Positions 1-43,340 of a stretch of DNA of 64,000 nucleotides are shown here, in pieces (positions within the stretch are counted from its first letter, which is position 1; each line of letters starts with the position of its first letter). The translations under genes were made by a program, and so were the position numbers. The DNA lies in assembly GCA_028344335.1 (NCBI GenBank), contig JAOMAZ010000001.1, positions 11,468 to 75,467 of the forward strand, read 5' to 3'. The notes below the pieces were generated by a model that did no database searches, had not been told where the DNA came from, and worked only from the letters and a program-made list of their open reading frames with translations. This DNA is from Deltaproteobacteria bacterium (lineage in GTDB: Archaea; Thermoplasmatota; Poseidoniia; Poseidoniales; Poseidoniaceae).

Positions 1-915
1 ATCATCGAGTATGTCAGGACGATTTGTTGCTGCGATTATCTTTACCGATTCAAGGGCATCAAAGCCATCTAATTCTGCTAGTAGTTGCATGAGTGTGCGT
101 TGAACTTCTCGGTCTCCACTGGTAGCAGCATCAAGGCGCTTAGCTCCAATTGCATCTATTTCGTCTAAGAAGATGATTGCTGGGGCTTTGTCGCGGGCCA
201 GTGAAAATAGTTCTCTAACCATTCGCCCACCTTCTCCAATATATTTCTGGGCTAATTCACTACCAACCATCCTAATGAAGGTTGCATTAGTTTGAGATGC
301 TACGGCCTTGGCAATCATGGTCTTTCCACAGCCTGGTGGTCCAACAAGCAAAACACCCTTTGGTGGCTCAATACCAACTTTCCGGAATAACTCGGGACTT
401 TCAAGTGGTAATTCAATGGCCTCTCGTAATTTCTCAATCTGTTCATCTAAGCCACCAATATGGTCGTACTCAATATTTGGTGCTTCAATTAATTCTGCTC
501 CACTAACGAGTGGATCCCAAGCATCATGGAGAACGTCAGTTACTGCTAATGTGTCTTGATTGAGTGCAACTCTGGTGCCCGGCTTCAAGCGTGAAAGACC
601 TAAGCGTTGGTTAACTGCAACTTGAAAGACGGTCCCATTAGAAGAACGGACAATTGCTGATTCATCGTTTAGGATATCTTGTATGTGCCCAATGATTAGC
701 GGTGGGCTCTTTAGCATACGAATTTCTTCATCTAATCTTGCAGTACGCTTCTTCAATTTATTGATATCACTTTCCAATGATACGCGTTCTGTTATCAAGC
801 GCTGAGCTTTATCATGTAAGGAGCGGTAATCCTGTTCTAACTGGCGTAATTCATCATCAGAGCGGTTCTCTTCACCAACCGAACCCGGCTTCATAGCCTC
901 AACATCAGATGTCAT
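1..915 (-). CDS. pan: Proteasome-activating nucleotidase (AAA+ ATPase, PAN / 26S regulatory subunit homologue). The C-terminus runs off the window edge.
   Basis: Reverse-strand translation from ATG (rc at 913-915) reads MTSDVEAMKPGSVGEENRSDDELRQLEQDYRSLHDKAQRL... (coiled coil). It is followed by Walker A GPPGCGKT and Walker B IIFLDEIDA, then ATNRPDILD. The ORF continues past position 1, so it is absent from the ORF track. Confidence 0.9.
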   Translation of the reverse strand, partial: MTSDVEAMKPGSVGEENRSDDELRQLEQDYRSLHDKAQRLITERVSLESDINKLKKRTARLDEEIRMLKSPPLIIGHIQDILNDESAIVRSSNGTVFQVAVNQRLGLSRLKPGTRVALNQDTLAVTDVLHDAWDPLVSGAELIEAPNIEYDHIGGLDEQIEKLREAIELPLESPELFRKVGIEPPKGVLLVGPPGCGKTMIAKAVASQTNATFIRMVGSELAQKYIGEGGRMVRELFSLARDKAPAIIFLDEIDAIGAKRLDAATSGDREVQRTLMQLLAELDGFDALESVKIIAATNRPDILDD

Positions 916-1027
916 TCAACTATCCTCAGTTTGCCCACCGTTATTCAATGTACTCAAACTCTTTGCTGGAAAATAGTCAATCGTAGGGTTGAATTGGGGG
1001 GAGCGTTGCACAGTCAACGGGGATAGT

Positions 1028-1516
1028 ATGGGCGCCTGTGAATTATGTGGAGCCGAGAAGACTTCTACACGTAGTGTGAAAATGGGAAGGGCAACTGTAG
1101 ATGCCTGCAGTAAATGCATTGATTCAATGAGTCTAGCCACTGTCGCGCCTATTCGAAAACCATCTGAAATTATCCAGAAAAGTGCAAATCATGGAGGATA
1201 TTCTGGAACGGGTAAGAAAGGCCGAGACATTATGCGTAAAGGGAAAAAGGAATTATGCGGGGGGTTTTCTAAAATAATTACCGAGGCTCGTGAAAAAATG
1301 GGTTTAGATAAACGCCAACTAGCTCACAAAATGGCTGAAAAAATAAATGTTATTCAAGCAGCAGAGTCTGGGCGTCCACCTTCTGACACTGTCATTAAAA
1401 AACTCGAAAGAGCCCTTGATATCACCCTGATGGTTGAAACTAAGCCAGATGAAAATAGAATGGTGGGCTCTGGCACAAGTCGTGGTATGAACTTAGGCGA
1501 TTTCTTCGAAGATTGA
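1028..1516 (+). CDS. mbf1: Archaeal multiprotein bridging factor 1 (aMBF1): N-terminal Zn-ribbon plus a Cro/C1-type HTH.
   Basis: MGACELCGAEK...CSKC forms the zinc ribbon. The HTH_3 segment is FSKIITEAREKMGLDKRQLAHKMAEKINVIQAAESGR. Start is placed at the internal Met (1028) of track ORF 989..1516. Confidence 0.8.
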   Translation: MGACELCGAEKTSTRSVKMGRATVDACSKCIDSMSLATVAPIRKPSEIIQKSANHGGYSGTGKKGRDIMRKGKKELCGGFSKIITEAREKMGLDKRQLAHKMAEKINVIQAAESGRPPSDTVIKKLERALDITLMVETKPDENRMVGSGTSRGMNLGDFFED

Positions 1517-1526
1517 GTCGATAAAC

Positions 1527-2090
1527 ATGGCTGAAATTGGAATCCACGCCATCTGGTTAGCTCAAGACGATCCCAGCAAAAATACTGCAGTAAAATTATC
1601 ACGGAAAGGTAAATTAATACTTCATAAGAAAATTTCTCAATTACCAAGGCGAGGAATTATCCTCGACCCTCTTTGCGGCAAAGTATTAGGCCCTGAAGAC
1701 CGAGAATTAATGGATAAAGGAGGGAAGTTAGTTGGACTTGATTGCAGTTGGGCGCAGATTGAAGATAGTGTCAAGAAAGTTGGGAAAAGAACCAAACTGC
1801 GACGAAGGATGCTTCCAATGCTATTAGCCGCCAACCCTGTGAACTGGGGGAAACCTAGTAAGATGACCACAGCCGAAGCACTAGCTGCATCATTATGGAT
1901 ATTAGGAAGAGAGCAGGAAGCCAGAGAATTACTCAATGCATTTAGTTGGGGAGAGGAGTTCTTCAAACTCAATAGACTACCACTCGAGGCCTATACTTCG
2001 GCTAATTCCAGTGGTGAATTGGTAAGGATGCAGATGGATTTCTTCGACCTTCCTGATGAAGTAGTAGCTGCTTTGACTGAGGAAGAATAA
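1527..2090 (+). CDS. tsr3: Tsr3 (DUF367), the SSU rRNA aminocarboxypropyltransferase.
   Basis: The segment GLDCSWAQIED...RRRMLPMLLAANPVNWGKPSKMTTAEALAASLWILG aligns closely with human TSR3 (IDCSWARLDE...[29 protein letters not shown]). Confidence 0.85.
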   Translation: MAEIGIHAIWLAQDDPSKNTAVKLSRKGKLILHKKISQLPRRGIILDPLCGKVLGPEDRELMDKGGKLVGLDCSWAQIEDSVKKVGKRTKLRRRMLPMLLAANPVNWGKPSKMTTAEALAASLWILGREQEARELLNAFSWGEEFFKLNRLPLEAYTSANSSGELVRMQMDFFDLPDEVVAALTEEE

Positions 2091-2102
2091 GACGCGGTAA
2101 CA

Positions 2103-3176
2103 TTGATGACTTGCTCAAGCTGCCAACGGTTCATGACAGGTCCATTGATTGAATGCGTGCCAAATATTAGCGAAGGTACAGACCTTGCTAAAATAGAATC
2201 AATCGTTAATGCTGCAAGAGGTATTGAAGGAGCTCGTGTATTATCTAGTGAACCTGATGCCGATTACAATCGTACCGTGATTACAATTGCAGGAACGCCG
2301 CAGGCAGTTAGTGAAGCGGCCTTTAGATTAATTGCTAGTGCAGCAAAAAATATCGACATGCGGCTACACAAAGGAAACCATGCACGCTTAGGTGCAGTTG
2401 ATGTATGTCCATTTATTCCCTTAGCGGAAATTAGCATGCAAGAATGTTCAGAATTGGCACGCAGCCTCTCTCTGAGGGTTGGTAGTGAATTAGGCCTAAC
2501 TTCCTATCTTTATGGAGCAGCCGCATCAACTGATGTAAGGAGAAACCATAGCCTCCTCAGGAAAGGACAGTACGAGGAATTAGAAGCACGTTTGACTGAA
2601 GGGGAAAATTCAATTCATGAAGAAGAGACTCGGCTACCTGATAATGGTCCATCAATTTGGACAGAAAAGGTTGCAAAGTTCGGTGCCACGATAATTGGTG
2701 CACGAGGTATTTTAGTAGCCTACAATGTTAATCTCGATGAAAAAGAAGCAATAGTAGCAGGGGCAATAGGTAGAACTGTTAGGCAATCCGGCCCACTAAT
2801 AAAGAATGAAGCCGGCCAAAAAATGCCAGTTTCAGGGATGTTGCCGAAAGTTCAGGGAATGGGCTTCCCTTTGGAAGAACATGGAATTTCTCAAGTCTCA
2901 ATGAATTTACAAGACATTAGCATAACGCCAATGCATGTGACATATGAAACAATCAAGTGGTTAGCAAATACCTATGGAATTAAAACTACAGGCAGTGAAT
3001 TAGTTGGTCTTGCTCCGCTAAGTGCTTTTTTAGAGGCTGGAGCATGGTATGATAGCAATGCAGTTAGTGAAGAGCAACTTATCGCAGCGGCAGTTAAGGG
3101 AATGGGCTTAGATGACCTTGGACCCTTTATTGCCGAGCAAAGGATTATCGAAAGAGCACTTACAGGAAGTGACTGA
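2103..3176 (+). CDS. ftcD: Glutamate formimidoyltransferase (formiminotransferase domain of FTCD).
   Basis: N-terminal LIECVPNISEG matches the FTCD signature LVECVPNFSEG. Protein is 357 aa. The cyclodeaminase gene follows 1 bp downstream. An alternative start is at 2133. Confidence 0.8.
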   Translation: MMTCSSCQRFMTGPLIECVPNISEGTDLAKIESIVNAARGIEGARVLSSEPDADYNRTVITIAGTPQAVSEAAFRLIASAAKNIDMRLHKGNHARLGAVDVCPFIPLAEISMQECSELARSLSLRVGSELGLTSYLYGAAASTDVRRNHSLLRKGQYEELEARLTEGENSIHEEETRLPDNGPSIWTEKVAKFGATIIGARGILVAYNVNLDEKEAIVAGAIGRTVRQSGPLIKNEAGQKMPVSGMLPKVQGMGFPLEEHGISQVSMNLQDISITPMHVTYETIKWLANTYGIKTTGSELVGLAPLSAFLEAGAWYDSNAVSEEQLIAAAVKGMGLDDLGPFIAEQRIIERALTGSD

Positions 3177-3809
3177 ATGGCTGAAGATGAATGGTCCGAA
3201 ATGAGTTTGCGTGAATTCCAAACTGCCCTTGCAAGTTCATCGCCAACTCCAGGAGGTGGCACAGCCGCTGCCGTATCACTCGGTCAAGCAGCCGCTCTGT
3301 CTTGCATGGTTGCAGACTTGACACTTGGCAAGGAAAAGTGGAAGAGCGGATGGGAAATTGCCGAAAAGGCCCAAGATTGCGCCATTGGAATGTTCAGCAA
3401 AGCCCTTGACTTGGCTACTGACGATAGCCGTTCATTCGATGCGGTTATGATGTCGTTCAAATTAGCCAAAGATAGCGATGAGGAAAAGGAGATTCGTCGT
3501 CAAGCAATTCACGAGGCTACCTTAGGAGCTGCAGAAGTTCCATTGGAGACAGCAAGACTGGCGCATTCTTTATTGGAGCATCTTCCAGAATTAGCCGAAA
3601 AAGGAAATGTAAACACAGTATCTGATATTGGAGTTGCATCACTTCTCGCATCTGCTGCTTGTAAAGGAGCATTATTCAATGTGGAAATCAATATTTCAAG
3701 TCTACCTGAAGAAATGGGTGGAGCTCTAAAAGAAGAAGCGACCTCAATATTAGAATCTTCAAGGATTTTATCAAGAGCCTGCATGGATGCGGTACGAAAA
3801 AGGCTGTGA
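3177..3809 (+). CDS. Formimidoyltetrahydrofolate cyclodeaminase (FTCD C-terminal domain homologue).
   Basis: SPTPGGGTAAAVSLGQAAAL is the cyclodeaminase-domain motif. Protein is about 210 aa, with the start 1 nt after the preceding stop. Confidence 0.75.
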   Translation: MAEDEWSEMSLREFQTALASSSPTPGGGTAAAVSLGQAAALSCMVADLTLGKEKWKSGWEIAEKAQDCAIGMFSKALDLATDDSRSFDAVMMSFKLAKDSDEEKEIRRQAIHEATLGAAEVPLETARLAHSLLEHLPELAEKGNVNTVSDIGVASLLASAACKGALFNVEINISSLPEEMGGALKEEATSILESSRILSRACMDAVRKRL

Positions 3810-3813
3810 ATAA

Positions 3814-4593
3814 ATGGCTAGCATTGAGGAGCGAGGAATACATCGCCTCAATGATGGAAACTGGTCTCTAGAAAAGGATTGTATCGCCGTTGAATCAGTC
3901 TTGAGCATCGATATTAAATCACCTACTAAATTGGAAAGATGGGTCAGCATTTTGAGAACCCCAGGCAATGATGAAGCCCTAATCAGGGGATTAATCCATT
4001 CAGAGGGCGTAATGACTGATAGTAGAGAATTCCAAATCGTATTGAATGAATCTTCTGCTACCATTCTCGTGACTGATGATTCATATCAAATCGCTGCCAG
4101 AGGACGAATTAGTAATGGCAGTGCATGTGGAATATGTGGCCGTCAAGATTTTTCTGATTTGTTGAATCTGATTCATCAATGCGAGTTAAGACAATTGAAT
4201 ATTGACGATGACATAATTGTTAACCTACCAAATACAATGAAAGATAGTCAAGTCGCTTTCTCTTCAACGGGTGGAATCCATGCCTCTGCCCTATTTACAG
4301 CAGAAGGAGATATGTTGCTAATGATGGAAGATATTGGTAGGCATAATGCTGTGGACAAAGTTATCGGCCAAGCAATAATTAGCGGTATTGAAATGCACAA
4401 TTGCATCCTTTGTTTATCAGGTAGAATTGGTTCAGAATTGGTACTAAAAGCAGCAGCTGCAGGAATCGCTGTAATCATTGCAGTAGGGGCCGCCAGTAGC
4501 ATGGCTATCGACCTAGCAAGAGAGGCAGGAATCGCCATGTATGGTTTTACTCGCAATGGAAGTAGCGTCTCATATAATCGGCCGATTGCATAA
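3814..4593 (+). CDS. fdhD: Formate dehydrogenase accessory sulfurtransferase FdhD.
   Basis: GRHNAVDKVIG hallmark motif, conserved Cys (SACGICG), about 259 aa, located immediately upstream of the FDH subunits. Confidence 0.85.
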   Translation: MASIEERGIHRLNDGNWSLEKDCIAVESVLSIDIKSPTKLERWVSILRTPGNDEALIRGLIHSEGVMTDSREFQIVLNESSATILVTDDSYQIAARGRISNGSACGICGRQDFSDLLNLIHQCELRQLNIDDDIIVNLPNTMKDSQVAFSSTGGIHASALFTAEGDMLLMMEDIGRHNAVDKVIGQAIISGIEMHNCILCLSGRIGSELVLKAAAAGIAVIIAVGAASSMAIDLAREAGIAMYGFTRNGSSVSYNRPIA

Positions 4594-4648
4594 GAATAAG
4601 AGAACAACAGTCAAAGTATGGAACCACCTCGTCAAACATGGTGAGTGG

Positions 4649-6508
4649 ATGACGATCATAGAAAGATGGGATCCCAGCCGACCGGGACATCGATTATTGG
4701 ATGTTCTGAAGAAAGAAATACATAACCGCGGAATGCCAAGCGGAGAGCGAATCCGAGAGATTGCAGAACTTTGTGATACTACTGCTGCAAAGGTGAGGGG
4801 AGCGATTGGCTATTATGCCGAATTAAAACCAAGTGATCACACAGTTAGAGTTTGTACTGGAGAGTCGTGCCGAGCCAGAGGTGCTGATGCTTTAATCAAG
4901 GAATTAGAAGACTCGGGTGAACGAGTTGGAGAGTTGATTTGTGCTGGACTTTGTGCTTGTGGACCTGCGGTACTTCGAGACGAAACTGTACCTCAATTTG
5001 TATCTCAACAAGGAAGCGGCAGTCAATTCTATATCAGCCAAGATAGTACTAGTATTGCGATTGGCTGTGAAGAAATCGCCACCACCTTAATTCAACATAT
5101 TCCGAAAGATTCTGCGTTAATTCGAACAGGGAGTAGAGGTCTATTCCATATTGAGCCTACGCTAGAAGTGGATATAGAAGGTAAAAGACATGCTTTTGGT
5201 CCTATTACCTCGGCAGAGATTCCTTCAATCCTAGATTCAATTACTAATCAACAAATCCATCCGAAATCACTTGGCCTAGTTGAAGATTTACTCAAAAATC
5301 AATCAAGATATGCAATGCAAAGATTTGGTCATGCTAATCCTCTTGATTTGGAAGGAATGAAGGAACTAGGAGCCTACCAAGGATTGGAAAAAACCAAAGA
5401 AATTGGTAGCAAGGCAGTCATTGAAGAATTGAAGACTGCAGGCTTGAGAGGGCGTGGCGGAGCTGGATTCCCAACTCATTTCAAGTGGGCAGCAGCCGCT
5501 GCCGAACAAACGGATTTGAAATTCGTAGTGGCAAATGCCGATGAAGGAGATGCTGGTACATTCATCGACCGGATGATAATGGAAGGTGATCCTCATGCAT
5601 TAATCGAGGGGATGGCGATTTGCGCTCAAGTAATAGGGGCAAGTCAGGGGAAAGTCTACCTTAGGAGCGAATATCCTCATGCTGAAGTAACACTGGAAAG
5701 TGCCTTACAAGGTGCAAGAAATGAGGGAATCCTTGGAGACCATTTTGATATTGAGATAGCAATTGGAGCTGGCTCATATGTTTGTGGGGAAGAAACAGCG
5801 CTGCTTGAGAGCCTTGAAGGCAGGAGAGGAGAAGTTAGGGCACGCCCACCATTTCCAACAACTTCTGGTCTATTCGGTAAACCTACAATCGTCAATAACG
5901 TCCTGACATTCGCCTTAGCGGCGGCAATAATGAGAGTTGGAGGAGAGCATTACGGAAGCCTCGGAGTCGAATCAAGTAAGGGCACAGTAGTTGTTCAAGC
6001 AACTGGTACCTTAGAACGTCCTGCTTGTTTCGAGATTCCTTTTGGTGGAAGTATTGGTACTATACTCGATTCATGGTGTGGATGTGAGGAAGTAGTTGCA
6101 GTACAAGCAGGAGGGCCTCTTGGTTCGGTATTCAAAATGCAAGAAATGTATGATATAGAATTATCATTTGAGGGTTTGGCAAATGCAGGTGGCTTACTTG
6201 GCCATGGTGGTTTCGTTTGTTATGATGCTGATTTTGACGCTCATAAGGAAGTTGTTGGCTGGATGCGTTTCTTCCGCGACGAGAGTTGTGGAAAATGCAC
6301 CCCGTGTCGGATCGGCACTCAACGGGCTTTGGAATTGATTGAACGCTTGGGTGGAGACATGGAAAAAGAAGGCGATAAGAAATTACTGACCGACCTAGAT
6401 GATTTAATGACCTCAACCTCTCTCTGTGCACTTGGTGGATTAGCGATGAACCCAGTGCGCTCGACCATGGAACGTTGGCCAGCCGCCTTTGGGGGTGAAC
6501 AGAAATGA
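4649..6508 (+). CDS. fdsB: NAD(P)-linked formate dehydrogenase beta subunit: a NuoE-like [2Fe-2S] domain fused to a NuoF-like FMN/NADH/4Fe-4S domain (FdsB-type).
   Basis: The NuoE-like N-terminus (VCTGESCRARGAD...) is followed by the NuoF glycine-rich segments GLRGRGGAGFPT and ANADEGDAGTF, and Cys clusters CGKCTPCR. The start is uncertain: the track ORF begins at 4541 and the first plausible Met after the fdhD stop is at 4649. Confidence 0.8.
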   Translation: MTIIERWDPSRPGHRLLDVLKKEIHNRGMPSGERIREIAELCDTTAAKVRGAIGYYAELKPSDHTVRVCTGESCRARGADALIKELEDSGERVGELICAGLCACGPAVLRDETVPQFVSQQGSGSQFYISQDSTSIAIGCEEIATTLIQHIPKDSALIRTGSRGLFHIEPTLEVDIEGKRHAFGPITSAEIPSILDSITNQQIHPKSLGLVEDLLKNQSRYAMQRFGHANPLDLEGMKELGAYQGLEKTKEIGSKAVIEELKTAGLRGRGGAGFPTHFKWAAAAAEQTDLKFVVANADEGDAGTFIDRMIMEGDPHALIEGMAICAQVIGASQGKVYLRSEYPHAEVTLESALQGARNEGILGDHFDIEIAIGAGSYVCGEETALLESLEGRRGEVRARPPFPTTSGLFGKPTIVNNVLTFALAAAIMRVGGEHYGSLGVESSKGTVVVQATGTLERPACFEIPFGGSIGTILDSWCGCEEVVAVQAGGPLGSVFKMQEMYDIELSFEGLANAGGLLGHGGFVCYDADFDAHKEVVGWMRFFRDESCGKCTPCRIGTQRALELIERLGGDMEKEGDKKLLTDLDDLMTSTSLCALGGLAMNPVRSTMERWPAAFGGEQK

Positions 6509-9204
6509 GTAATGAATTCACCATGATAATTGACGGTACTATGGTTATTGGGCATGAAGGTCAAACAGTCATGCAAGTAGCCAGAGATAATGAAATTAAA
6601 ATTCCAAGTCTTTGTGATTCACCTCATCTTGCTGCATTCGGTTCTTGCCGAATATGTGTCGTAGAAGTGGATGGGATGCGCGGCACGCCTTCTTCTTGCA
6701 CTACCCCAGCAAATGCAGGAATGCAAGTTTCAACAACCAGTGATAGATTGTGGGAATTGCGAAGAGGGTTGACTGAACTCTATGTGAGTGAACACCCACT
6801 CGACTGCCTGACTTGTACTGCTAACGGAGATTGTGAGTTACAAGATGTTGCGGCAGAAGTTGGATTGAGGGAAATTCGCTATGACAATACTCCTTCTTGT
6901 GAAGGCATGCCAATCGATGAATCAAACCCCTTCTTTTCTTTTGACCCAAGTAAATGCATTGTCTGTTCTCGTTGCATCAGGGCCTGTGATGATATTCAAG
7001 CAACCCATGCTCTATCGCTAGATGGGAGAGGTTTCTTCAGCCGAATAATTGCTGGTGCAGATGAATTATTTATGGATTCAGATTGTGTATCATGTGGTGC
7101 TTGTGTCAACGAATGTCCAGTTGCTGCCCTTGAAGACACCGTCGAGAGAAAGCATGGCAAGCCAGATGCGTATGTTCGTACTACTTGCGCATTTTGCGGA
7201 GTCGGCTGTCAATTCGACGCTGGTGTCAAAGGTGGAAAACTAGTCTCGATGATTCCAGTTGCTGAGTCTCCTGTCAATCAGGGTCATTCTTGTGTCAAAG
7301 GGAGGTTCGCTTCAGCCTATGTCCATCACCAAGATAGGCTGACAGTTCCGCTGGTTCGTGATTCAATAGAAGATGAATTTAGAGAAGCAAGTTGGGAGGA
7401 GGTTTATGGCCTAATTTCGTCAAAATGGCAAAATCTGATTAGTACTCAGGGTCCTGATTCTCTCGGAATAATTACTTCTTCGCGTTCTACAAATGAACTC
7501 AACTATCTTGGCGCAAAATTGATGCGAGCTGTTGTTGGAACTAATAATGTGGATAATTGTGCAAGAGTATGCCATTCTGCAACTGTCAAAGGAATGATGA
7601 CGGTATTTGGTGCGGGGGCCGGAACTAATAGTTTGAATGATATCGATGAAACCGACTTACTCCTAGTCTCAGGCTGCAATCCCATTCACGGCCACCCAGT
7701 CACAGGCTCAAGAATAGTCCGCGCAAGAAAGCGTGGCATGAGGATGATTGTTGCCGATCCAAAACGCACAGAATTGGCTAAAATAGCCGATATTCACCTG
7801 CAATTAAGACCAGGTACAAATGTCGCCCTTTACCAAGGCTTGGCCCATATCATCCTACGGGAAAACTTGCAAGCCGGTGATGAATGGATGTCTTCTAGAA
7901 CCGAGAACCTTGAGCCATTCAAGGAAATGGTCAAATTGATGACGCCTGAATTATGTTCAGAACTGACTACCATCCCAGTCGAAACATTGGAATCCGCAGC
8001 AAGATTGTACGCCAAGGCCGATGCTGCAATGTCCGTACACGGCCTAGGTATGACTGAGCATAGTCATGGCTCTGAAGGTGTTATGGCACTCTCAAGTCTT
8101 GCACTGCTGACAGGAAATGTAGGCCGGCTAGGAACCGGAATCAATCCACTGAGGGGTCAAAATAATGTTCAGGGTTCATGTGACATGGGTGCTCTCCCTA
8201 ATGTCTATACAAATTATCAATCAGCAGACGACCCTCAAGTAAGACAGAAATTTGCTACTGCATGGAATGTAGAAGTTCCAACTAAACCGGGAATGACTTA
8301 TCCTGCTATGCTAGAAAGTGTTAGCGAAGGTGGGCTGAAATCACTATACATGATTGGCTCAGATATTGCCCACACAGACCCAAATAATCTACAGGTTATT
8401 GAGGCATTATCCAATTTGGAATTACTCATTGTTCAAGATATATTCTTCTGTGAATCTGCAAAGTTGGCCCATATCGTGCTGCCAGCTGCCTCATTCTTGG
8501 AATCCGATGGAACCTATACAAACGGTGAGAGAAGAATTCAGCGAATTCGAAAAGCTATCGATGCACCTGGTCAAGCAAAGCAGGATTGGATAATCGTCAA
8601 GGAATTAGCAGAAGCGATGGGCCACCCTATTGCATTTAGTGAGGATTGCTCTGATGTGTGGGATGAATTAGCGGCATTAACACCCAACTTCGTAGGAATC
8701 TCCTATGATAGGTTAGAGGATATAGAAGCCGTTCAATGGCCGGCGCCAACTACTGAACATCCTGGCACTTCTGTCATGCACCAAGACCAATTTTCGAGGG
8801 GGTTGGGCCATTTTGTTGCCCCTGAGTTTTCTGAGCCAAATGAAACTGCGAGCGATGATTACCCATTTATCCTAGTAACTGGTAGGAACCTCTATCACTA
8901 CAATGCAGCAACTCAAACAAGACGTAGTGGTCTTGTTGAATTCAGAGGTACTGATTACCTAGAAATACACCCAGAAGACGCTGAAAGACTTGGCATTGAA
9001 GACAATACTGAAATCTGGATTTCAAGCCCTCGGAATAAGATTAAAATGTTAGCAAAACACAATGATGATGTGAGAATAGGTAATCTATTCACAACTTTCC
9101 ACTTCCCAGAACTTGGAATCAACACCGTAATCAGTTCTTCATCCGATGGTTATACTCGTTGCCCCGAATACAAGGTCCAAGCTGTTGCCATAAGTGCCGT
9201 TTAA
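6505..9204 (+). CDS. fdsA: Formate dehydrogenase alpha subunit, a molybdopterin enzyme of the Cys type (FdsA/FdhF-like).
   Basis: An N-terminal 2Fe-2S and 4Fe-4S Cys-rich region (CRICVV, CIVCSRCIRAC, CVSCGACVNEC) is followed by CAFCGVGC. The active-site motif NNVDNCARVCHSATV carries Cys where selenoprotein FDHs have Sec (CARVUH). The ATGA overlap with fdsB couples translation. Confidence 0.9.
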   Translation: MSNEFTMIIDGTMVIGHEGQTVMQVARDNEIKIPSLCDSPHLAAFGSCRICVVEVDGMRGTPSSCTTPANAGMQVSTTSDRLWELRRGLTELYVSEHPLDCLTCTANGDCELQDVAAEVGLREIRYDNTPSCEGMPIDESNPFFSFDPSKCIVCSRCIRACDDIQATHALSLDGRGFFSRIIAGADELFMDSDCVSCGACVNECPVAALEDTVERKHGKPDAYVRTTCAFCGVGCQFDAGVKGGKLVSMIPVAESPVNQGHSCVKGRFASAYVHHQDRLTVPLVRDSIEDEFREASWEEVYGLISSKWQNLISTQGPDSLGIITSSRSTNELNYLGAKLMRAVVGTNNVDNCARVCHSATVKGMMTVFGAGAGTNSLNDIDETDLLLVSGCNPIHGHPVTGSRIVRARKRGMRMIVADPKRTELAKIADIHLQLRPGTNVALYQGLAHIILRENLQAGDEWMSSRTENLEPFKEMVKLMTPELCSELTTIPVETLESAARLYAKADAAMSVHGLGMTEHSHGSEGVMALSSLALLTGNVGRLGTGINPLRGQNNVQGSCDMGALPNVYTNYQSADDPQVRQKFATAWNVEVPTKPGMTYPAMLESVSEGGLKSLYMIGSDIAHTDPNNLQVIEALSNLELLIVQDIFFCESAKLAHIVLPAASFLESDGTYTNGERRIQRIRKAIDAPGQAKQDWIIVKELAEAMGHPIAFSEDCSDVWDELAALTPNFVGISYDRLEDIEAVQWPAPTTEHPGTSVMHQDQFSRGLGHFVAPEFSEPNETASDDYPFILVTGRNLYHYNAATQTRRSGLVEFRGTDYLEIHPEDAERLGIEDNTEIWISSPRNKIKMLAKHNDDVRIGNLFTTFHFPELGINTVISSSSDGYTRCPEYKVQAVAISAV

Positions 9205-9251
9205 ATCATTGGTGGCAATTGATAAGAGAAGGATGCCCAGCGTAAGCCACC

Positions 9252-11264
9252 ATGGTCAAGCAGGCGTTGATGCGATTAGCGGATGGAATCCCATCACAAT
9301 TGCCTGAATATCCTGCTATTGATGCTGTTATTGATCAAGCGCCAGCAAGAAAACAAATACTCTCAGCAAGAGATAAAGAATTGGCAATTCGGAATGCTTT
9401 GAGATATATCCCTGAAAAATGGCATGCAACTTTGGCTGCGGAATTCAAGCAAGAATTAGAGATATTTGGGCGCATCTTCATGATGCGTTTTAGGCCAACA
9501 GAATATGAGATGAAAGCATATCCAATCACAAATTATCCTGCAAAATGCAAACAAGCAGCGAGTATTATGCTGATGATTCAAAACAACCTTGACCCCGCAG
9601 TAGCACAATTCCCCCATCAATTAATCACTTATGGAGGCAATGGGGCGGTATTTCAAAACTGGATTCAATACCATTTGGTGATGCAATATCTAAGCCAGAT
9701 GACAGAGAATCAAAGCCTTGTCATGTATTCTGGCCACCCACTGGGACTCTTCCCTTCGCATCCCGATTCTCCACGGGTTGTCATCACCAATGGCATGGTC
9801 ATCCCAAATTATAGTTCTCAAGATAATTATGAGCGCCTAAATGCACTTGGGGTTTCCCAATATGGACAAATGACTGCGGGTTCATACATGTATATCGGAC
9901 CACAAGGAATCGTCCATGGGACAACTATCACACTGCTCAATGCAGCCCGCATGAAACTCGGCATAGCAAGTGATGCAAGCCTTGCAGGGATCTGCTACGT
10001 AACATCGGGACTAGGGGGGATGTCAGGTGCTCAAGCCAAGGCAGCGGTAATCGCTGGTTGTGTTGGTGTCATCTCAGAAGTTAACCCAATCGCAGCAAGA
10101 AAGCGCCATGAACAGGGTTGGTTAAGTGAACTCTACGAAGATGTCGACCAAGTCATCGATCGAATGTTAGAAGCAAAAGCTAACGGTGAGGCGATATCAA
10201 TCGGCCATGTTGGGAATATTGTTGACCTCTGGGAAAGACTTGTTGAGCGAGATATCCAAATCGAATTAGGCAGTGACCAAACAAGCCTACACAATCCATG
10301 GCAAGGTGGATACTTTCCCGTAGGAGTTGATTTTGAAGAAGCAAAACTGATGATGTCCCAAAACCCTTCGAGGTTCAAAAAAGAAATCCAATCCACCTTG
10401 CTAAGGCATGCAAAAGCAGTCAATACAATGGTGGAAAGAGGCACATATTTCTGGGATTATGGTAATGCCTTCTTACTTGAGGCAAGTCGAGCAGGCGCAG
10501 ATATTTGCGATGCAAACGGTGATTTTATTCATCCATCTTATGTTGAGGACATCATGGGTCCACGCTGTTTTGACCTTGGATTCGGACCCTTTCGATGGGT
10601 CTGTTGCTCGGGAAGCAAAGAAGACCTTGAGGTGACCGATAATATTGCCAAGCAGGTGCTCGAAGAAATGGCAACGACTGCTCCTTTAGAGATTCAACAG
10701 CAATTGAAGGATAATATCCAATGGATCGGCGCTGCGGGGATGAACAGGATGGTTGTTGGTAGTCAAGCAAGGATTCTCTATGCTGATGAGGAGGGCCGAA
10801 AGCGAATTGCCTCTGCATTTAATGAAGCAATAAAAGATGGAGTTATTAGTGCTGGAATCGTTTTAGGTAGAGATCATCACGATGTATCTGGGACAGATAG
10901 TCCATATCGTGAAACTGCCAATATCAAGGATGGTTCCAATCTTTGCGCTGATATGGCCATCCACAACGTCATCGGGGATTCATTTAGAGGTGCAACTTGG
11001 GTGAGTATCCACAATGGTGGAGGTGTTGGTTGGGGAGAAGTGATTAACGGTGGCTTTGGAATGTATCTCGATGGAAGTCAAGATTCTGAAAGGCGTTTGA
11101 ACTCAATGTTATCATGGGATGTCAACAACGGAATTGCTCGGCGTGCATGGGCAAGAAACCCAGAGGGAATATTTGCAATCAAGCGTGCCATGCAGAAGGA
11201 GCCTTTGCTCAAAGTTACCTTGCCAAATCTAGTAGATAACGAGATTATCGAAAATTTATTCTAA
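9252..11264 (+). CDS. hutU: Urocanate hydratase of the long, eukaryote-like UROC1 type.
   Basis: 670 aa. ALRNALRYIPEKW...AYPITNYPAKCKQAASIMLMIQNNLDPAVAQFPHQLITYGGNG...LVMYSGHPLGLFPS...VITNGMVIPNYSS aligns along its length with human UROC1. Confidence 0.9.
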   Translation: MVKQALMRLADGIPSQLPEYPAIDAVIDQAPARKQILSARDKELAIRNALRYIPEKWHATLAAEFKQELEIFGRIFMMRFRPTEYEMKAYPITNYPAKCKQAASIMLMIQNNLDPAVAQFPHQLITYGGNGAVFQNWIQYHLVMQYLSQMTENQSLVMYSGHPLGLFPSHPDSPRVVITNGMVIPNYSSQDNYERLNALGVSQYGQMTAGSYMYIGPQGIVHGTTITLLNAARMKLGIASDASLAGICYVTSGLGGMSGAQAKAAVIAGCVGVISEVNPIAARKRHEQGWLSELYEDVDQVIDRMLEAKANGEAISIGHVGNIVDLWERLVERDIQIELGSDQTSLHNPWQGGYFPVGVDFEEAKLMMSQNPSRFKKEIQSTLLRHAKAVNTMVERGTYFWDYGNAFLLEASRAGADICDANGDFIHPSYVEDIMGPRCFDLGFGPFRWVCCSGSKEDLEVTDNIAKQVLEEMATTAPLEIQQQLKDNIQWIGAAGMNRMVVGSQARILYADEEGRKRIASAFNEAIKDGVISAGIVLGRDHHDVSGTDSPYRETANIKDGSNLCADMAIHNVIGDSFRGATWVSIHNGGGVGWGEVINGGFGMYLDGSQDSERRLNSMLSWDVNNGIARRAWARNPEGIFAIKRAMQKEPLLKVTLPNLVDNEIIENLF

Positions 11265-11276
11265 GGAGGAAGATGT

Positions 11277-12809
11277 ATGGAAATAGAACTTGACGGAAGA
11301 AACCTAAGCATGGAAGAACTACTCCTTGTAGCAACCGGTGTTGCTGATGCAATTATTTCTGAAACAGCCAAAACAGGGATTGAAGCAGCAACAAAAACAG
11401 TTGAAGGCATCATTGAGAGAGGAGAAGTAGCCTATGGAATCAACACAGGGTTCGGGGCTCTTTGCAATACGAGTATCGACTCCTCTAAACTGGGGGACTT
11501 ACAAGCAAACCTGATTCGAAGCCATGCCTGTGGGATAGGAGAAGCCATGGAAGTAGTGCCGGTAAGGGCAATGATGTGTGCCCGTGCGAACTCATTATGC
11601 CGAGGTAATAGCGGTATTAGAATCGAAGTTATCCAAAGAATTCTCGACATGCTAAATCTTGGCCTAACACCTGTTGTTCCTAGAATTGGTTCCCTTGGAG
11701 CCTCTGGGGACCTTGCGCCTCTTTCCCATGTTGCTTTGACTATCATGGGAGAAGGCAGCGTAATTGACCAATACGGAGAATTCTATGATACTGCTCAGGC
11801 ATTGGCTAATAACGATTTGAAGCCAATTCAACTCCAAGCAAAGGAAGGACTTTCTCTAATTAATGGGACTAGTCAAATCCTTTCTTGGCTAACTATTTCT
11901 CACGCCATCCTAAGCGATCTTTTGCCGTTGGCAGACCTAATTCTCTCAACCTCAATCGAGGCATTAAGCGGCTCTATTGCACCAAGTGATGAACGCATAC
12001 ATACAGCAAGGCCTCACCCTGGTCAAGCGCTTGTTGCTAATCGAATTCTAAGAGCCCTAAACAATTCTGAAATCAATCAAGCCCATGCAGATTGTGATAA
12101 AGTTCAGGATCCATACTCCTTTCGATGCGCTCCACAAGTACATGGACCTGCAAATGAAGTCCTTCAAAGGCTAGGTGATGTGATAACAATAGAATTGAAT
12201 TCTGCAACAGATAACCCACTGATTTTTCCAGAACCAAATAACCCTGGTCCACACGAAGTCGTTAGTGGTGGAAACTTCCATGGAGAGATACTCGCCCTAA
12301 CCGCAGATGCAATGAATGCCGCTGTTCATGAAATTGCCAGCATTAGTGAGAGGAGAATGGACACCCTCTTGGATACAAAACGTAGTGGACTTCCTGCCTT
12401 CTTAGCCAATGAAAGCGGCCTTGAATCTGGAATGATGATTGTGCAATATGCAGCCGTAGCTGCAATCGCTGACCTTCGCGCCCACTTAGGACCTCATACC
12501 ACCTTTAGCCTCTCAACCTCAGCCAATCAAGAAGACCATGTTAGTATGGGTGCCACTGCTGCTTGGCATCTCTTCCAAAGCGCCCAAAGGCTAGCAGATA
12601 TCCTGTCCTGTGAAGCAATAATCGCTTGTGAAGGGTTGGAGCACCATCAAGAAAAGGCAGGAGATGGCGTGGATGCGCTCTACAAGCACGTTAGAACATT
12701 GGTAGAGCCATTACAGGGAGACCGCTCATTAGCAGGTGAAATGGCCGATTTAGCTAATGATTTCCTCAATGGAATTGGGGATGAAAATATTCACCCTTAC
12801 CTTGAGTGA
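11277..12809 (+). CDS. hutH: Histidine ammonia-lyase (MIO cofactor).
   Basis: GSLGASGDLAPLSHVAL contains the Ala-Ser-Gly MIO-forming triad. Protein is 510 aa. Confidence 0.9.
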   Translation: MEIELDGRNLSMEELLLVATGVADAIISETAKTGIEAATKTVEGIIERGEVAYGINTGFGALCNTSIDSSKLGDLQANLIRSHACGIGEAMEVVPVRAMMCARANSLCRGNSGIRIEVIQRILDMLNLGLTPVVPRIGSLGASGDLAPLSHVALTIMGEGSVIDQYGEFYDTAQALANNDLKPIQLQAKEGLSLINGTSQILSWLTISHAILSDLLPLADLILSTSIEALSGSIAPSDERIHTARPHPGQALVANRILRALNNSEINQAHADCDKVQDPYSFRCAPQVHGPANEVLQRLGDVITIELNSATDNPLIFPEPNNPGPHEVVSGGNFHGEILALTADAMNAAVHEIASISERRMDTLLDTKRSGLPAFLANESGLESGMMIVQYAAVAAIADLRAHLGPHTTFSLSTSANQEDHVSMGATAAWHLFQSAQRLADILSCEAIIACEGLEHHQEKAGDGVDALYKHVRTLVEPLQGDRSLAGEMADLANDFLNGIGDENIHPYLE

Positions 12810-13781
12810 TTAATCATCCAACAAGATATCAAGAGAATTCCAAACTTCGCGTATTCCGGTCAACTGTCTAATCCTGAAGCGGAATGCTGTGGCGTTTGAG
12901 ATATCTCCTCGAGACATCAATAAGTCCACGCGGCGGTCTAATTCAACCGCTAATCGCACCTTTTCTTCCACAACACGATATAGTGCATAGGCATGTTCCA
13001 TATCCTGATATTTTAGAGCAGGTTCCAACTCACTAACGTCGAAGCCCATTCGCCTCCAAGCCAATATCCGTCTGCGCAAAATTGCAGTAGTAAAACCAGC
13101 AGATGGTAGGCGAGTTAGGTGACTCAGTTTTGCCGAGCCGTCTTCATGTACCTCCACTTCTGAAGTTGTTTCAACTACCTCTTCCGATGCTTCAACTTCT
13201 TCTTCATGAATAATGACCTCGTCAATTGCAGCCTCAGGTAGTTCCCAAACAGGCGCCTCACGTCTTAAACGAGCGATTTCTGTTGTCATAAACGCCTTTG
13301 GTTCAACTGGACAAACAAGCCTCCATGTAGTTGCAGAAATATCATCTGACATTGAACGTAAAAAAGTCAAAACCGCTGCAAATCCATGCAGGCTCATCAA
13401 ATGTTCGACCCCGTCTAAAACGATTATACCAGACTTCTCAGATATCCTCTCTCTAATTTTCATCGCCAAACGCTCAAGACTTGGACTAACGGCACTCGGA
13501 GAATCTCGTTCAGTCAACCAACCTACTTCAACAGTATTGATATCAATCTTGCCAATCAAGCGACGAGGCGGTAATCTAGTTAGCAATAATGAATGATAAC
13601 CCGATGAATTCACCAAGTCTAGCCATTCAAACATGGCCTCCATTCCCTCTTCCAAAAGGTGGGTTGAGCCACCCTCTGGCAGAAGCCCCATACCGCTGCG
13701 ATGCTCCGCCATCATACCTCGCCCCTTGTTGACGGCTCTTGACCATGACGCCCATAAGAATAGAATGGTCAGTATTCCCAC
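12810..13781 (-). CDS. DUF835-like protein (degenerate RecA/KaiC-like fold without a P-loop) with an acidic linker and a C-terminal helical domain.
   Basis: SGIIVLDGVEHLMSLHGFAAVLTFLRSMSDDISATTWRLVCPVEPKAFMTTEIARLRREA resembles the DUF835 core. It is followed by the acidic stretch EEEVEASEEVVETTSEVEVHEDG. The start is uncertain because internal Mets are available. Confidence 0.5.
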   Translation of the reverse strand: MGILTILFLWASWSRAVNKGRGMMAEHRSGMGLLPEGGSTHLLEEGMEAMFEWLDLVNSSGYHSLLLTRLPPRRLIGKIDINTVEVGWLTERDSPSAVSPSLERLAMKIRERISEKSGIIVLDGVEHLMSLHGFAAVLTFLRSMSDDISATTWRLVCPVEPKAFMTTEIARLRREAPVWELPEAAIDEVIIHEEEVEASEEVVETTSEVEVHEDGSAKLSHLTRLPSAGFTTAILRRRILAWRRMGFDVSELEPALKYQDMEHAYALYRVVEEKVRLAVELDRRVDLLMSRGDISNATAFRFRIRQLTGIREVWNSLDILLDD

Positions 13782-13845: not shown

Positions 13846-15675
13846 ATGTCTGGAAATGATGATGCGAACGATGGAATGGCAGAATGCGGCGCATGTAGGG
13901 CCGTAGTACCGGTTGACTCAGAGGAATGTCCAGGTTGCGGAATATCCTTTACTGGAGTCAGTGAAACAAGTCTTGGAGAATGTGGGGCTTGTGGCGCATT
14001 AGTCGCTTTGGAAAGCAAAGCATGCCCTCAATGCGGCGTTGTTTTCGTAGCAGATGATGTCATTTCCATCCTTGGAGACTGGCTTTCAGCCACCGGATTA
14101 ACAGTGGCAGACCTATTCAAGCGATTCGATGAAAACGAAGATGGCGTTATCGAAGCACACGAATTCAAGAGCGGCCTGTTGGCACTCAATATTGCTGATC
14201 TCCCAGAATCTCAAGTTGACCGCCTAGTCAAAGCACTCGATGATGACGGAAATGGCGTTATCGACCTAGAAGAACTTGAATCTACATTCTCATCACCTGA
14301 CAATGCTCCCGCTAAGGATGTTGGACCAGAAGAAGAAGAAACTACTGAGGAAGACTCAAACGAAGAGGAGGAAGACTCAAACGAAGAGAGTGAAGAGTCG
14401 GTTGAGGAAGAAGATTCCGCAGAAGAGGACGAAGAGGAAAGTTCCGATGACAAAGCTGAAGAAACTGCCGAGGAAGACTCAAGTGAAGAAGAAGAGGAAA
14501 GTTCTGATGGCGAAGAGGAAACTACAGAGGAAGACTCAAGCGAAGGGGATGAAGATGATTCAACTGAGGATGAAGATGATTCAACTGAGGATGAAGAAGA
14601 AATCCCCGACACACCTTTAGCACGTATGGTTAAGAATTTCAAAGATGCAGGATATAGCGTCAAAGAAGCCTTCGAGCATATGGATGTAAACAATGATGGT
14701 GAAATCGACGGCGAAGAGATGACAAAAGCCCTAGCAGAATTCGGCGGTGGTACCATCGATGAAGAGGATGTTAGTGCAGTAATGGAAGAATTAGACCTAG
14801 ATGAGAATGGAGTTATTACCCTTGACGAGCTAATGGTAGCATTTGGAGTTCCAGCCGAAGAAGAGCCTGAGGAGGATGAAAAGCCTAAGGAAGAATCCAA
14901 GCCAGAGAAGGAGTTTCCCACCGACCTTCAAAAGAAATTGATGTCAAAGAAAGCCAACGATATCTTTTGGCCAATAATGCACACTTTATTCGCTGTATTC
15001 GCATTACTCTGGGTACTAAATGGAATGGGTACATTCGTAGATGGCGAAGGTGGCAGCATAGAATTTGAAGGAAAAACCGTTGCTTGCGACACTGATTTTC
15101 ATGGAAAGTGTAAAAATTCACTAACACCATTTTCAGGAGATGGTTTGACATCTTCAATGCCTGCCGCATTCTATGCTGATGGAATCATCTTCATGATTCT
15201 TGGTTTCTCGGGTCTAGGTGCAAGTCTCTATGCACACTTGATTTTGATGAAAGCCTGGAGAGCCAAAGTAAAAGGCGACGAGGGTGACGATGAAGTAGCT
15301 AAAGAAGAGGATTCAGATTCAAAAGAAGATTCAGATTCAAAGGAAGATGAAGATTCTGATGATGAGTCCGATGACGATGATGAGTCCGATGACGATGATG
15401 AGTCTGATGACGATGATGAGTCCGATGACGACGATGAATCCGATGACGACGATGACGACGATGAATCCGATGACGACGATGAATCCGATGACGATGATGA
15501 GTCCGATGACGATGATGACATCGATGTAGGTTCGAGAGTCGGAGTTGAAGTTGACGGTGAAGAGATCTTTGGAACCATCATTTCATTCGATGATGATGAA
15601 GATACAGTCACCATAGAAGACGAGGAAACTGGCGATGAAATCGAGGCTCCTCAAGACACCATGTTCTTGGAGTGA
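13846..15675 (+). CDS. Membrane-anchored poly-acidic Ca2+-binding-like protein: double Zn-ribbon, 4 EF-hand loops, 2 TM helices and a poly-Asp/Glu/Ser tail.
   Basis: Two Cys4 ribbons: CGACRAVVPVDSEECPGCG and CGACGALVALESKACPQCG. Four EF loops: DENEDGVIEAHEF, DDDGNGVIDLEEL, DVNNDGEIDGEEM, DLDENGVITLDEL. TM segments: IFWPIMHTLFAVFALLWVLNGMG and IIFMILGFSGLGASLYAHLILM. Acidic runs at about 14330-14620 and 15270-15530, including (ESDDD)n. Confidence 0.75.
   Translation: MSGNDDANDGMAECGACRAVVPVDSEECPGCGISFTGVSETSLGECGACGALVALESKACPQCGVVFVADDVISILGDWLSATGLTVADLFKRFDENEDGVIEAHEFKSGLLALNIADLPESQVDRLVKALDDDGNGVIDLEELESTFSSPDNAPAKDVGPEEEETTEEDSNEEEEDSNEESEESVEEEDSAEEDEEESSDDKAEETAEEDSSEEEEESSDGEEETTEEDSSEGDEDDSTEDEDDSTEDEEEIPDTPLARMVKNFKDAGYSVKEAFEHMDVNNDGEIDGEEMTKALAEFGGGTIDEEDVSAVMEELDLDENGVITLDELMVAFGVPAEEEPEEDEKPKEESKPEKEFPTDLQKKLMSKKANDIFWPIMHTLFAVFALLWVLNGMGTFVDGEGGSIEFEGKTVACDTDFHGKCKNSLTPFSGDGLTSSMPAAFYADGIIFMILGFSGLGASLYAHLILMKAWRAKVKGDEGDDEVAKEEDSDSKEDSDSKEDEDSDDESDDDDESDDDDESDDDDESDDDDESDDDDDDDESDDDDESDDDDESDDDDDIDVGSRVGVEVDGEEIFGTIISFDDDEDTVTIEDEETGDEIEAPQDTMFLE
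15355..15520 (+). repeat. In-frame 15-bp tandem repeat (gat gac gat gat gag tcc, about 11 copies) encoding (DDDES)n. It is preceded by two 18-bp repeats encoding DSDSKE.
   Basis: Direct reading shows gatgagtccgatgacgatgat iterated with minor third-position variants. Alternate-frame track ORFs 15347..15529 (MSPMT repeats) and 15228..15614 (Ser-rich) are artefacts of this periodicity. Confidence 0.85.
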
Positions 15676-17069: not shown

Positions 17070-18275
17070 TCAATGAAGTAAGAACTCGCCCCCAACAAGA
17101 GTTCCGACAAATGGTGAATGCCCGGGCCGAGAACACCAAGCCTCCCAATTTGGAGAATCTAGGATGTTCAAATTTGCAGCGCCACCAACGACGATTTGGC
17201 CGTGCGTCAAATCTGCATCATGCATGACATTCTCAGCCGGGTTTCGAGAAACTGCTACTAGTGAAGCAAGAGGGTCAATTCCCATCCTCTGAGAAAGTAA
17301 AGAACCAATAAATGGTAAAGACAGTGTCCGGCAATTGGGATTGTAATCGCTAGCAGCACACCAAGCCCACTCTTCATCAATGCATTGTTGCGCAGGAGGG
17401 AAATGTGTCTCCCCCATTGAATAAGGGGTCGCTGGCAAGAAACATTGCATGCTGTTAGCATCATTAGCAGCAGCCCGTGCTTCATCAGAACTCCAATGAG
17501 CATGATCGCCAGATTGGGAGCCCAATTCAGCCGCTAATGCAAGCCCCCCGCCATCCACAAACTCATCTACATGAAGTCGGATGTCCATACCTCCAGCCTT
17601 GGCTGCTTTGCAAAGCTCCTCAGTCTCTTCAATACTAAACCAACCAGGCTCACAAAACACATCAGCAGAACGCGCCATCCCAGAATCAAGCACTGCGGGT
17701 AATTGTTCAGAAAGAAGCTCTTCGAAATAGTCACTACGGCTCATGTTTGGAGGAGCGGCATGGGCACCTAACCAAGTAGAATCAATAGAAAGGCCATGTA
17801 AAGAAACTGCGGCCTCCAATAAACGCAATTCTGAGTCCGTATTCAAGCCATAACCACTCTTTACCTCCAAAGCAGTCGTGCCATGACGTAAGGCCATCTC
17901 CATACGTGAAAGGCCACATTCCAACAAAGACTCCATGCTCATCTCCCTTGTTGCAGCAACAGTACTTGCAATACCGCCGCCTCTAGCAGCAATATCTGCA
18001 TATGACATCCCATTCAGGCGCCAGCGTAATTCACGAGAGCGATCCCCCCCCCATAGTAAGTGAGTATGTGCATCGACCAAGCCTGGTATTACTGCCCTAC
18101 CTCCTACTTCCAAGACCTGATGACCATTGATATCAACAAAATTAAGTTCATTTCCTCGAAGTCCTCCGAGGTATTCATCGCGTAGGTTTTCAGAATCTCC
18201 GATTCTGGTGATTATACCATTATCAACAACGATACCCATTCCACTTGAAGATACTAATAACTCATCATTAGACAT
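17070..18275 (-). CDS. hutI: Imidazolonepropionase (amidohydrolase superfamily).
   Basis: PGLVDAHTHLLWGG metal-binding motif with HAHWSSDE. The start is placed at the Met of MSNDELLVSSSGMGIVVDNG (about 402 aa). The longer track ORF would overlap kae1 head-on. Confidence 0.85.
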   Translation of the reverse strand: MSNDELLVSSSGMGIVVDNGIITRIGDSENLRDEYLGGLRGNELNFVDINGHQVLEVGGRAVIPGLVDAHTHLLWGGDRSRELRWRLNGMSYADIAARGGGIASTVAATREMSMESLLECGLSRMEMALRHGTTALEVKSGYGLNTDSELRLLEAAVSLHGLSIDSTWLGAHAAPPNMSRSDYFEELLSEQLPAVLDSGMARSADVFCEPGWFSIEETEELCKAAKAGGMDIRLHVDEFVDGGGLALAAELGSQSGDHAHWSSDEARAAANDANSMQCFLPATPYSMGETHFPPAQQCIDEEWAWCAASDYNPNCRTLSLPFIGSLLSQRMGIDPLASLVAVSRNPAENVMHDADLTHGQIVVGGAANLNILDSPNWEAWCSRPGHSPFVGTLVGGEFLLH

Positions 18276-18411
18276 GGATGACCCACGAAGTGGACCCTCT
18301 CCACCAGAAAGATGTGCCAATGGACCAAGGTCCAATAACAGACTCGCCATGCACTACGCTACGAGGGTACGGTTCAAATGGACTGCCCTTGAGCAAGGTA
18401 CGGGTAATGAC

Positions 18412-25602: not shown

Positions 25603-25611
25603 GGTGAAAAA

Positions 25612-28675: not shown

Positions 28676-28676
28676 T

Positions 28677-29252: not shown

Positions 29253-29261
29253 GGTGAGATA

Positions 29262-34690: not shown

Positions 34691-34755
34691 ATATTTTCAA
34701 TAACAATGCACGGTTAGGGTTAATTATATAGTTGTCAGAAGGCGGAACGACGACG

Positions 34756-43335: not shown

Positions 43336-43340
43336 ACTGA

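Follow-up and report, generated by a model that had tools for sequence, protein, structure and literature searches.

A bacterial-type formate dehydrogenase module embedded in the histidine-utilization locus of a Poseidoniales archaeon: a suggestive link to histidine breakdown

We analyzed a 64,000-nucleotide (nt) stretch of DNA (contig JAOMAZ010000001.1 of assembly GCA_028344335.1, positions 11,468 to 75,467), referred to throughout as the window, and focused on a run of genes for histidine utilization (hut) and formate dehydrogenase (FDH). The locus is the hut locus of an archaeon of the order Poseidoniales (Marine Group II, MGII), in which a bacterial-type NAD-dependent molybdenum (Mo) FDH module, fdhD-fdsB-fdsA, is embedded. 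With evenly divided confidence, we propose that this module is functionally coupled to histidine breakdown, so that the one-carbon (C1) unit of histidine would pass through formate to CO2. The link is suggestive. It is favored because the hut-FDH linkage survived an inversion of fdsB-fdsA in a sister clade, because the slot beside hutU is filled by one or the other of two distinct FDH-family enzymes, both accompanied by FdhD, and because the chemistry fits, as FtcD loads the C2 carbon of histidine onto folate. It is further favored by a bacterial relative that has purU beside its FDH operon, and by the precedent of tetrahydrofolate (THF)-linked oxidation leading to FDH in SAR11 (PMC3160333). 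Such coupling may hold without the hut and fds genes sharing one transcript.

The open reading frame (ORF) listing and profile scans gave eight co-directional plus-strand genes in 1527-12809, or nine when the preceding aMBF1-like gene is included (Table 1). The initial annotation had counted eleven genes in one co-directional run. The common orientation stands for tsr3 to hutH but not for hutI, which lies on the minus strand. The enzyme assignments themselves held, with HutI and the cyclodeaminase as putative members, and every core enzyme exceeded its curated cut-off except HutI, which fell 6 bits short.

Table 1 Predicted features of the window; scores are in bits, and the value after "vs" is the curated cut-off.
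Feature	Position	Strand	Evidence
aMBF1-like HTH protein	989-1516	+	PF01381 (HTH_3) 31 bits; TIGR00270 88 bits, under its cut-off
tsr3 (16S rRNA aminocarboxypropyltransferase family)	1527-2090	+	PF04034 134 bits; NF002621 179 vs 152
ftcD, glutamate formimidoyltransferase	2103-3176	+	FTCD_N 194 bits and FTCD 130 bits; TIGR02024 274 vs 221
FTCD_C-family protein	3177-3809	+	PF04961 174 bits
fdhD, sulfurtransferase maturing the FDH molybdenum cofactor	3814-4593	+	PF02634 182 bits; TIGR00129 152 vs 141
fdsG-fdsB fusion	4649-6508 (longest ORF from 4541)	+	2Fe-2S_thioredx, Complex1_51K and NADH_4Fe-4S domains
fdsA, catalytic subunit of Cys-type Mo/bis-molybdopterin guanine dinucleotide NAD-linked FDH	6505-9204	+	TIGR01591 777 vs 666
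hutU, long-type urocanate hydratase, 670 amino acids	9252-11264	+	three urocanase domains; TIGR01228 412 vs 375
hutH, histidine ammonia-lyase	11277-12809	+	TIGR01225 569 vs 539
DUF835 protein	12810-13781	-	PF05763 66 bits; convergent with hutH, zero spacing
hutI, putative imidazolonepropionase	17070-18350	-	TIGR01224 292.2 vs 298.15; amidohydrolase domains
TPR/TrmB junction, 5-nt gap	43330-43345	+	TPR 41005-43335, TrmB 43341-44696

The first two pathway genes are separate ORFs that abut directly, with the stop codon TGA of ftcD at 3174-3176 followed by ATG at 3177. ftcD encodes the transferase domain only and likely starts at ATG 2106; its product matched the FTCD structure 1tt9_A over residues 3-326 (215 bits). 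The FTCD domains expected of the two genes were found in both. The FTCD_C-family protein scored 152 bits on the FchA equivalog model, below its cut-off of 275, and its gene accompanies ftcD at all MGII loci sampled. Because of this invariable pairing we call it, by context, a putative formimino-THF cyclodeaminase; the other candidate activity is methenyl-THF cyclohydrolase, to which its closest solved relative (7vg4) belongs.

HutU aligned with the 681-amino-acid (aa) urocanase 6uek_A, which we take to be the Trypanosoma cruzi enzyme, over residues 2-666 with 853 bits, whereas short bacterial HutU proteins gave about 340 bits and aligned only from residue ~96-104. HutU is thus of the long type, as had been annotated, and its N-terminal ~85-100 residues correspond to the homologous extension by which long urocanases differ from short ones. 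The representative of a 50%-identity cluster of long urocanases is a 680-aa Acidobacteriota protein with 63% identity to HutU. In an Acidobacteriota locus (L064), the long urocanase gene stands alone and is uninformative on origin. A 677-aa ORF in a Vicinamibacterales locus (L003) is not a long urocanase; it has no Pfam match and is a spurious high-GC ORF. HutH contains the methylidene-imidazolone (MIO) motif (GASGDL, residues 142-144). hutI likely starts at Met26 (18275); it lies 4.3 kb downstream of the run and is kept in L054. The HutH-HutU-HutI-FtcD-cyclodeaminase route is therefore predicted to be complete, in agreement with the initial annotation, all five enzyme families being present at the gene level.

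We then compared the FDH module with characterized FDH subunits. FdsA matched solved FdsA chains with 898 bits (9wxb_B) and 884 bits (6tg9_A). Its active site is intact, with Cys352-His353 (CARVCHS at 352) and the arginine motif RGQNNVQG at 550, and its domains include the NuoG-like N-terminal Fe-S region (Fer2_4, NADH-G_4Fe-4S_3, Fer4_7 and Molybdop_Fe4S4). These features identify FdsA as a genuine Cys-type molybdopterin formate dehydrogenase, with a predicted formate:NAD+ activity, and not as a paralogue of Nuo proteins lacking the molybdopterin site. A 71% identical FdsA (P0041) is labelled 'Opitutales bacterium', and the next bacterial matches are at ~52%; P0041 probably comes from a mis-binned MGII contig.

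FdsB matched the beta subunits of FDH (6vw7_B, 415 bits; 6tg9_B, 410 bits; 9wxb_C, 400 bits). The N-terminus is a NuoE/FdsG-like 2Fe-2S domain (PF01257, 39 bits) with a Cx4C...Cx3C motif, and the remainder is a NuoF-like FMN/NAD(H) module. The FdsG-type subunit is not encoded by a separate gene, its domain being fused to the N-terminus of FdsB, and FdsG function is probably retained in the fusion. The N-termini of FdsB homologues align from ATG 4649 (MTIIERWDPSRPGH). The 53-nt overlap between fdhD and fdsB is therefore probably an artefact of the longest ORF, and the true spacing would be a 55-nt gap. When the FdsD small subunit (PF11390) of the bacterial-like locus L056 was used as a tblastn query, neither the window nor any MGII locus gave a match.

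In the proposed route, HutH would remove ammonia from histidine, the long-type HutU would hydrate urocanate, and HutI would open the ring to give formiminoglutamate. FtcD would transfer the formimino group to THF or to the folate analogue of the host, freeing glutamate, and the FTCD_C protein would release ammonia to leave methenyl-THF. The steps from HutH to the FTCD_C protein are read solely from gene identity. We infer two further steps: methenyl-THF would be converted to formate by enzymes of the FolD type and of the Fhs or PurU type, with genes elsewhere in the genome, and FdsGB-FdsA, matured by FdhD, would oxidize formate to CO2 with gain of NADH. The FDH probably also takes formate from other sources. 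A short GCV_T/YgfZ-like folate-binding protein (45105-45833) and a serine hydroxymethyltransferase (61290-62708, minus strand) are encoded in the window, suggesting that the host has a folate-type C1 carrier.

To evaluate conservation of the linkage, we sampled gene contexts from the FdsA side (including 42 metagenome loci) and from the FtcD side, and scored all of them by tblastn of the window proteins. Near-identical loci occur in metagenome-assembled genomes labelled Candidatus Poseidoniales and 'Methanobacteriota archaeon' (FtcD, 90-92% identity), and the relatives of FdsA and FtcD carry the names Thalassarchaeaceae, Poseidoniaceae or Poseidoniales, which places the window in MGII of the phylum Thermoplasmatota. 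The arrangements were grouped into classes A to E. Class A has the co-directional order of the window (L001, L002 and L054 with 95-96% FdsA identity; L013, L015, L021 and L048 with 78-80%). Class B has the same gene set with fdsB-fdsA inverted, divergent from hutU and convergent with fdhD (L004-6, L011-12 and L046; FdsA, 71-73%). In class C, fdhD-fdsB-fdsA stands by itself, flanked on one side by TrmB/Fe-S-biosynthesis/2-hydroxyacid dehydrogenase genes and on the other by a TPR gene (L007, L026, L028, L031, L051 and others), and class D has fdsB-fdsA alone, for example after SerRS (L009, L044).

Class E comprises hut loci without FdsAB. Any Mo enzyme is missing from the first form (L014). A second form, seen in at least four sampled Poseidoniaceae-type lineages, reads hutH-hutU-MFS-[FdhF/YdeP-family oxidoreductase]-fdhD-tsr3-aMBF1. 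In L057:3169-7541, and also in L058-L063, fdhD, a 724-765 aa FdhF/YdeP-family molybdoenzyme and a major facilitator superfamily (MFS) transporter lie between tsr3 and hutU. The oxidoreductase in this slot reached 900 bits with TIGR01701 (cut-off, 582). The ftcD-FTCD_C pair of L057-L063 is located beyond PAN on the other strand.

The hut locus is an old feature conserved across Poseidoniales, and the initial annotation overstated how unusual the module is in an archaeon. The FdsGBA module, in contrast, is mobile within MGII genomes and is hut-linked in only one or two sub-lineages. The TPR and TrmB genes of the window are orthologous to the class C flanks (TPR, 60% identity in the C-terminal part), and their junction is the empty counterpart of the class C FDH site. 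Because fdhD-fdsB-fdsA sits between the TPR/TrmB orthologues elsewhere, the module has moved between two genomic sites. The hut-FDH linkage is nevertheless older than the window lineage, because the class A order recurs at 78-80% FdsA identity and class B keeps the gene set. In a neighbor-joining tree of FdsA, the MGII sequences were monophyletic (100%) and classes A and B were sisters with only 56% bootstrap support, with class C scattered at the base. A weak FdhD tree grouped class A with class C, that is, with the TrmB-site modules, and placed class B apart.

The strongest competing explanation is that the synteny is incidental, which we regard as a real possibility, though short of even: the FDH would be a general formate oxidizer, Mo enzymes would be swapped in beside a resident fdhD whose position next to hut is accidental, and the order would be inherited in a compact genome. 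Several observations weigh against functional coupling and suit this explanation. Most MGII FDH modules are located away from hut, with hut genes present at 2 of the 14 MGII-type metagenome FDH loci that have at least 3 kb on both flanks, and other lineages carry the module at the TrmB/TPR site, left empty in the window, or alone after SerRS. One lineage (L014) keeps the hut cluster with no Mo enzyme. The genes for tsr3, aMBF1, PAN, MetRS, CNNM and DUF835 are unrelated to the pathway and equally syntenic, housekeeping genes among them, and in class B fdsB-fdsA is on the opposite strand. The exchange of one Mo enzyme for another could be driven by fdhD alone, without hut being involved.

The enzymes needed to connect the two halves of the route also count against coupling. 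Pfam scans of essentially all ORFs of at least 120 aa found no folD, fhs or purU in the window. A tblastn search of ~1.08 Mb of compared loci, using FolD and PurU of E. coli and an Fhs probe, found none in any MGII locus, so none is linked to the cluster. The sole purU match in the ~1.08 Mb was in L056 (49% FdsA identity), where purU and a Zn-dependent alcohol dehydrogenase gene lie directly upstream of fdsG-fdsB-fdsA-fdhD-fdsD; this region (L056:5209-13825) is a C1-oxidation cluster. In addition, the FTCD_C protein is nearer to the cyclohydrolase (110 bits) than to the cyclodeaminase domain of FTCD (71 bits) or to the cyclodeaminase 1o5h (61 bits).

Gene spacing also suits incidental synteny. 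From aMBF1 to hutH, the intergenic gaps are 10, 12, 0, 4, -53 or +55, -4, 47 and 12 nt. Elsewhere in the window there are 23 pairs of same-strand neighbors, of which 12 are separated by no more than 13 nt (median, 9). Coding sequence makes up about 89% of the window, which has 39 of its 50 genes on the plus strand. Tight packing is the norm in this genome and does not distinguish the cluster; the run includes tsr3 and aMBF1 at equally short distances, and tsr3, 10-12 nt from its neighbors, is functionally unrelated to histidine or formate. aMBF1, the first gene of the co-directional run, is syntenic in all MGII arrangements and is a conserved neighbor without a role in the pathway.

Incidental synteny accounts less well for two different FDH-family enzymes occupying one slot beside hutU in divergent lineages, for a linkage that outlived an inversion, and for the good biochemical fit of a C1 unit released on folate. 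Functional coupling between hut and the FDH remains our preferred reading. The initial annotation had gone further and proposed a dedicated histidine-to-reducing-power pathway; this is plausible at most, as FolD and Fhs/PurU are absent from the cluster, the window and the compared MGII loci and most FDH modules lie away from hut. A bolder form of the coupling is that the tsr3/fdhD-hutU slot in Poseidoniales is a dedicated C1-disposal position, at which FDH-family enzymes, either FdsGB-FdsA or an FdhF/YdeP-type enzyme with its MFS transporter, were recruited or exchanged under selection. We put this forward tentatively and consider it rather unlikely.

A single co-transcribed operon dedicated to converting histidine into reducing power is improbable. 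The genes are co-directional with gaps of at most 55 nt, the gene order recurs in L013 and L015, and T-runs of five or more occur only within genes and in no intergenic gap of the cluster. However, hutI is on the other strand, and tsr3 and aMBF1 belong to the same run. The inversion of fdsB-fdsA in the sister clade (class B) means that one transcript is not conserved, since that arrangement requires separate promoters for hutUH and for ftcD-fdhD. The hut and FDH genes are interleaved rather than fused into one supercluster, the wording of the initial annotation. A scan for TATA-like heptamers on the plus strand (600-12900) gave a single match, TTTAAAT at 9200-9206, which overlaps the fdsA stop codon and precedes hutU by 52 nt; it has no predictive value here because nearly all other genes of the window lack such a heptamer upstream.

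It is very improbable that the molybdoenzyme serves something other than histidine-derived formate, such as CO2 reduction to supply formate for formyl-THF, or another formyl compound: FdsABG-type enzymes are reversible in vitro, and the substrate of the YdeP-family enzymes in the slot of other lineages is not settled, but the active-site signature of FDH is complete in FdsA, which also scores above the FDH equivalog cut-off. Net CO2 reduction is also unlikely in MGII, which are described as aerobic photoheterotrophs (PMC6336850).

Neither the enzyme families nor the proposed chemistry is new; the apparent novelty is the gene-neighborhood pattern in an abundant uncultured archaeal order. We found no paper linking MGII/Poseidoniales to hut genes or FDH, or formiminotransferase to FDH. 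Papers on MGII genomes discuss protein and lipid degradation, but histidine, urocanate, formate and folate go unmentioned in the two main surveys, one of which lists molybdenum-cofactor synthesis as a core trait. The pattern points to Mo enzymes that this core cofactor pathway may serve, and the repeated association of a conserved hut locus with an FDH-type enzyme is a hypothesis testable in metatranscriptomes. If the coupling is true, MGII would oxidize the C2 carbon of histidine fully via folate and formate, gaining NADH and releasing the three nitrogens as ammonia or glutamate. If the slot were in fact a C1-disposal position, histidine would hold a privileged place among the energy and nitrogen sources of the archaea that are most abundant in the surface ocean, and the poorly understood FdhF/YdeP family would gain a role in the oxidation of histidine-derived formate. 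The slot pattern is also a context-based lead on the function of that family.

Several genes outside the pathway were also recorded. The DUF835 gene adjoins hutH in every hut arrangement for which this side of the locus was covered, namely classes A and B and the FDH-less L014, and its product is a candidate hut-associated sensor or regulator. Beside it on the plus strand (13846-15675) is a gene for a 609-aa protein that begins with a double zinc ribbon and also contains several EF-hand pairs. Class B loci (L004, L011) likewise have this gene next to DUF835. Few archaeal proteins carry multiple EF-hands. Farther along the window, the methylmalonyl-CoA mutase large subunit gene is followed after 10 nt by a glyoxalase-fold protein gene, likely encoding methylmalonyl-CoA epimerase (24013-26037). 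A tight run of GTP cyclohydrolase I, radical-SAM protein, QueC and PTPS/QueD-like genes (28668-31137) looks like a cluster for preQ0, the archaeosine precursor. A 1272-aa CARDB/Ig-like repeat protein, presumably at the cell surface, is encoded at 34732-38550, and L007 has a 1444-aa CARDB protein at the orthologous position. In the Vicinamibacterales locus (L003:4627-10597), a gene for a fused 558-aa FTCD has, ~1.5 kb upstream, a conflict-system gene, which encodes a TOTE-type archaeo-eukaryotic primase-helicase-DUF559 protein.

We compared the locus with known systems. SAR11, a streamlined marine heterotroph, has been proposed to oxidize THF-linked C1 units from methylated compounds with folD, fhs and fdhF/fdsB/fdhD (PMC3160333). 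The logic is the same as that proposed here, folate-bound C1 units passing through formate to CO2 and reduced nucleotides, and the FDH subunit types are shared; however, folD and fhs were identified in SAR11, whereas they were not located here and the proposed source is histidine. The FDH module resembles FdsABG(CD) of Rhodobacter capsulatus and Cupriavidus necator (6tg9, 6vw7) in FdsA (884-898 bits), in FdsB (410-415 bits), in the conserved Cys-His-Arg residues and in the adjacent FdhD/FdsC-type maturase gene. It differs in the FdsG-FdsB fusion, in the lack of FdsD in MGII loci and in having fdhD first, whereas L056 keeps fdsG, fdsB, fdsA, fdhD and fdsD.

A folate-linked histidine route in which the hut cluster encodes the transferase and the cyclodeaminase as two proteins has been described in Fusobacterium nucleatum (FN1404-FN1407) and some other bacteria (PMC12288474). 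The same five enzyme families, the separate genes placed with hut and the transfer of the C1 unit to folate are common to F. nucleatum and the window, but the window has an archaeal host, a long-type urocanase and an interleaved FDH module; the hut section of that paper mentions no FDH association. Compared with mammalian FTCD and UROC1, the transferase matches FTCD structures (215 bits) and the urocanase is homologous to 6uek over its full length, N-terminal extension included, whereas the window has two genes in place of the one bifunctional polypeptide of metazoan FTCD. The description of the locus as eukaryote-type or metazoan-like was not upheld, as the separate-gene FTCD route occurs in bacteria and TIGR02024 is a prokaryotic equivalog. 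Because Acidobacteriota have long urocanases, one of them 63% identical to HutU, and a Vicinamibacterales bacterium has a fused FTCD (L003), the features shared with FTCD and UROC1 are not specific to eukaryotes.

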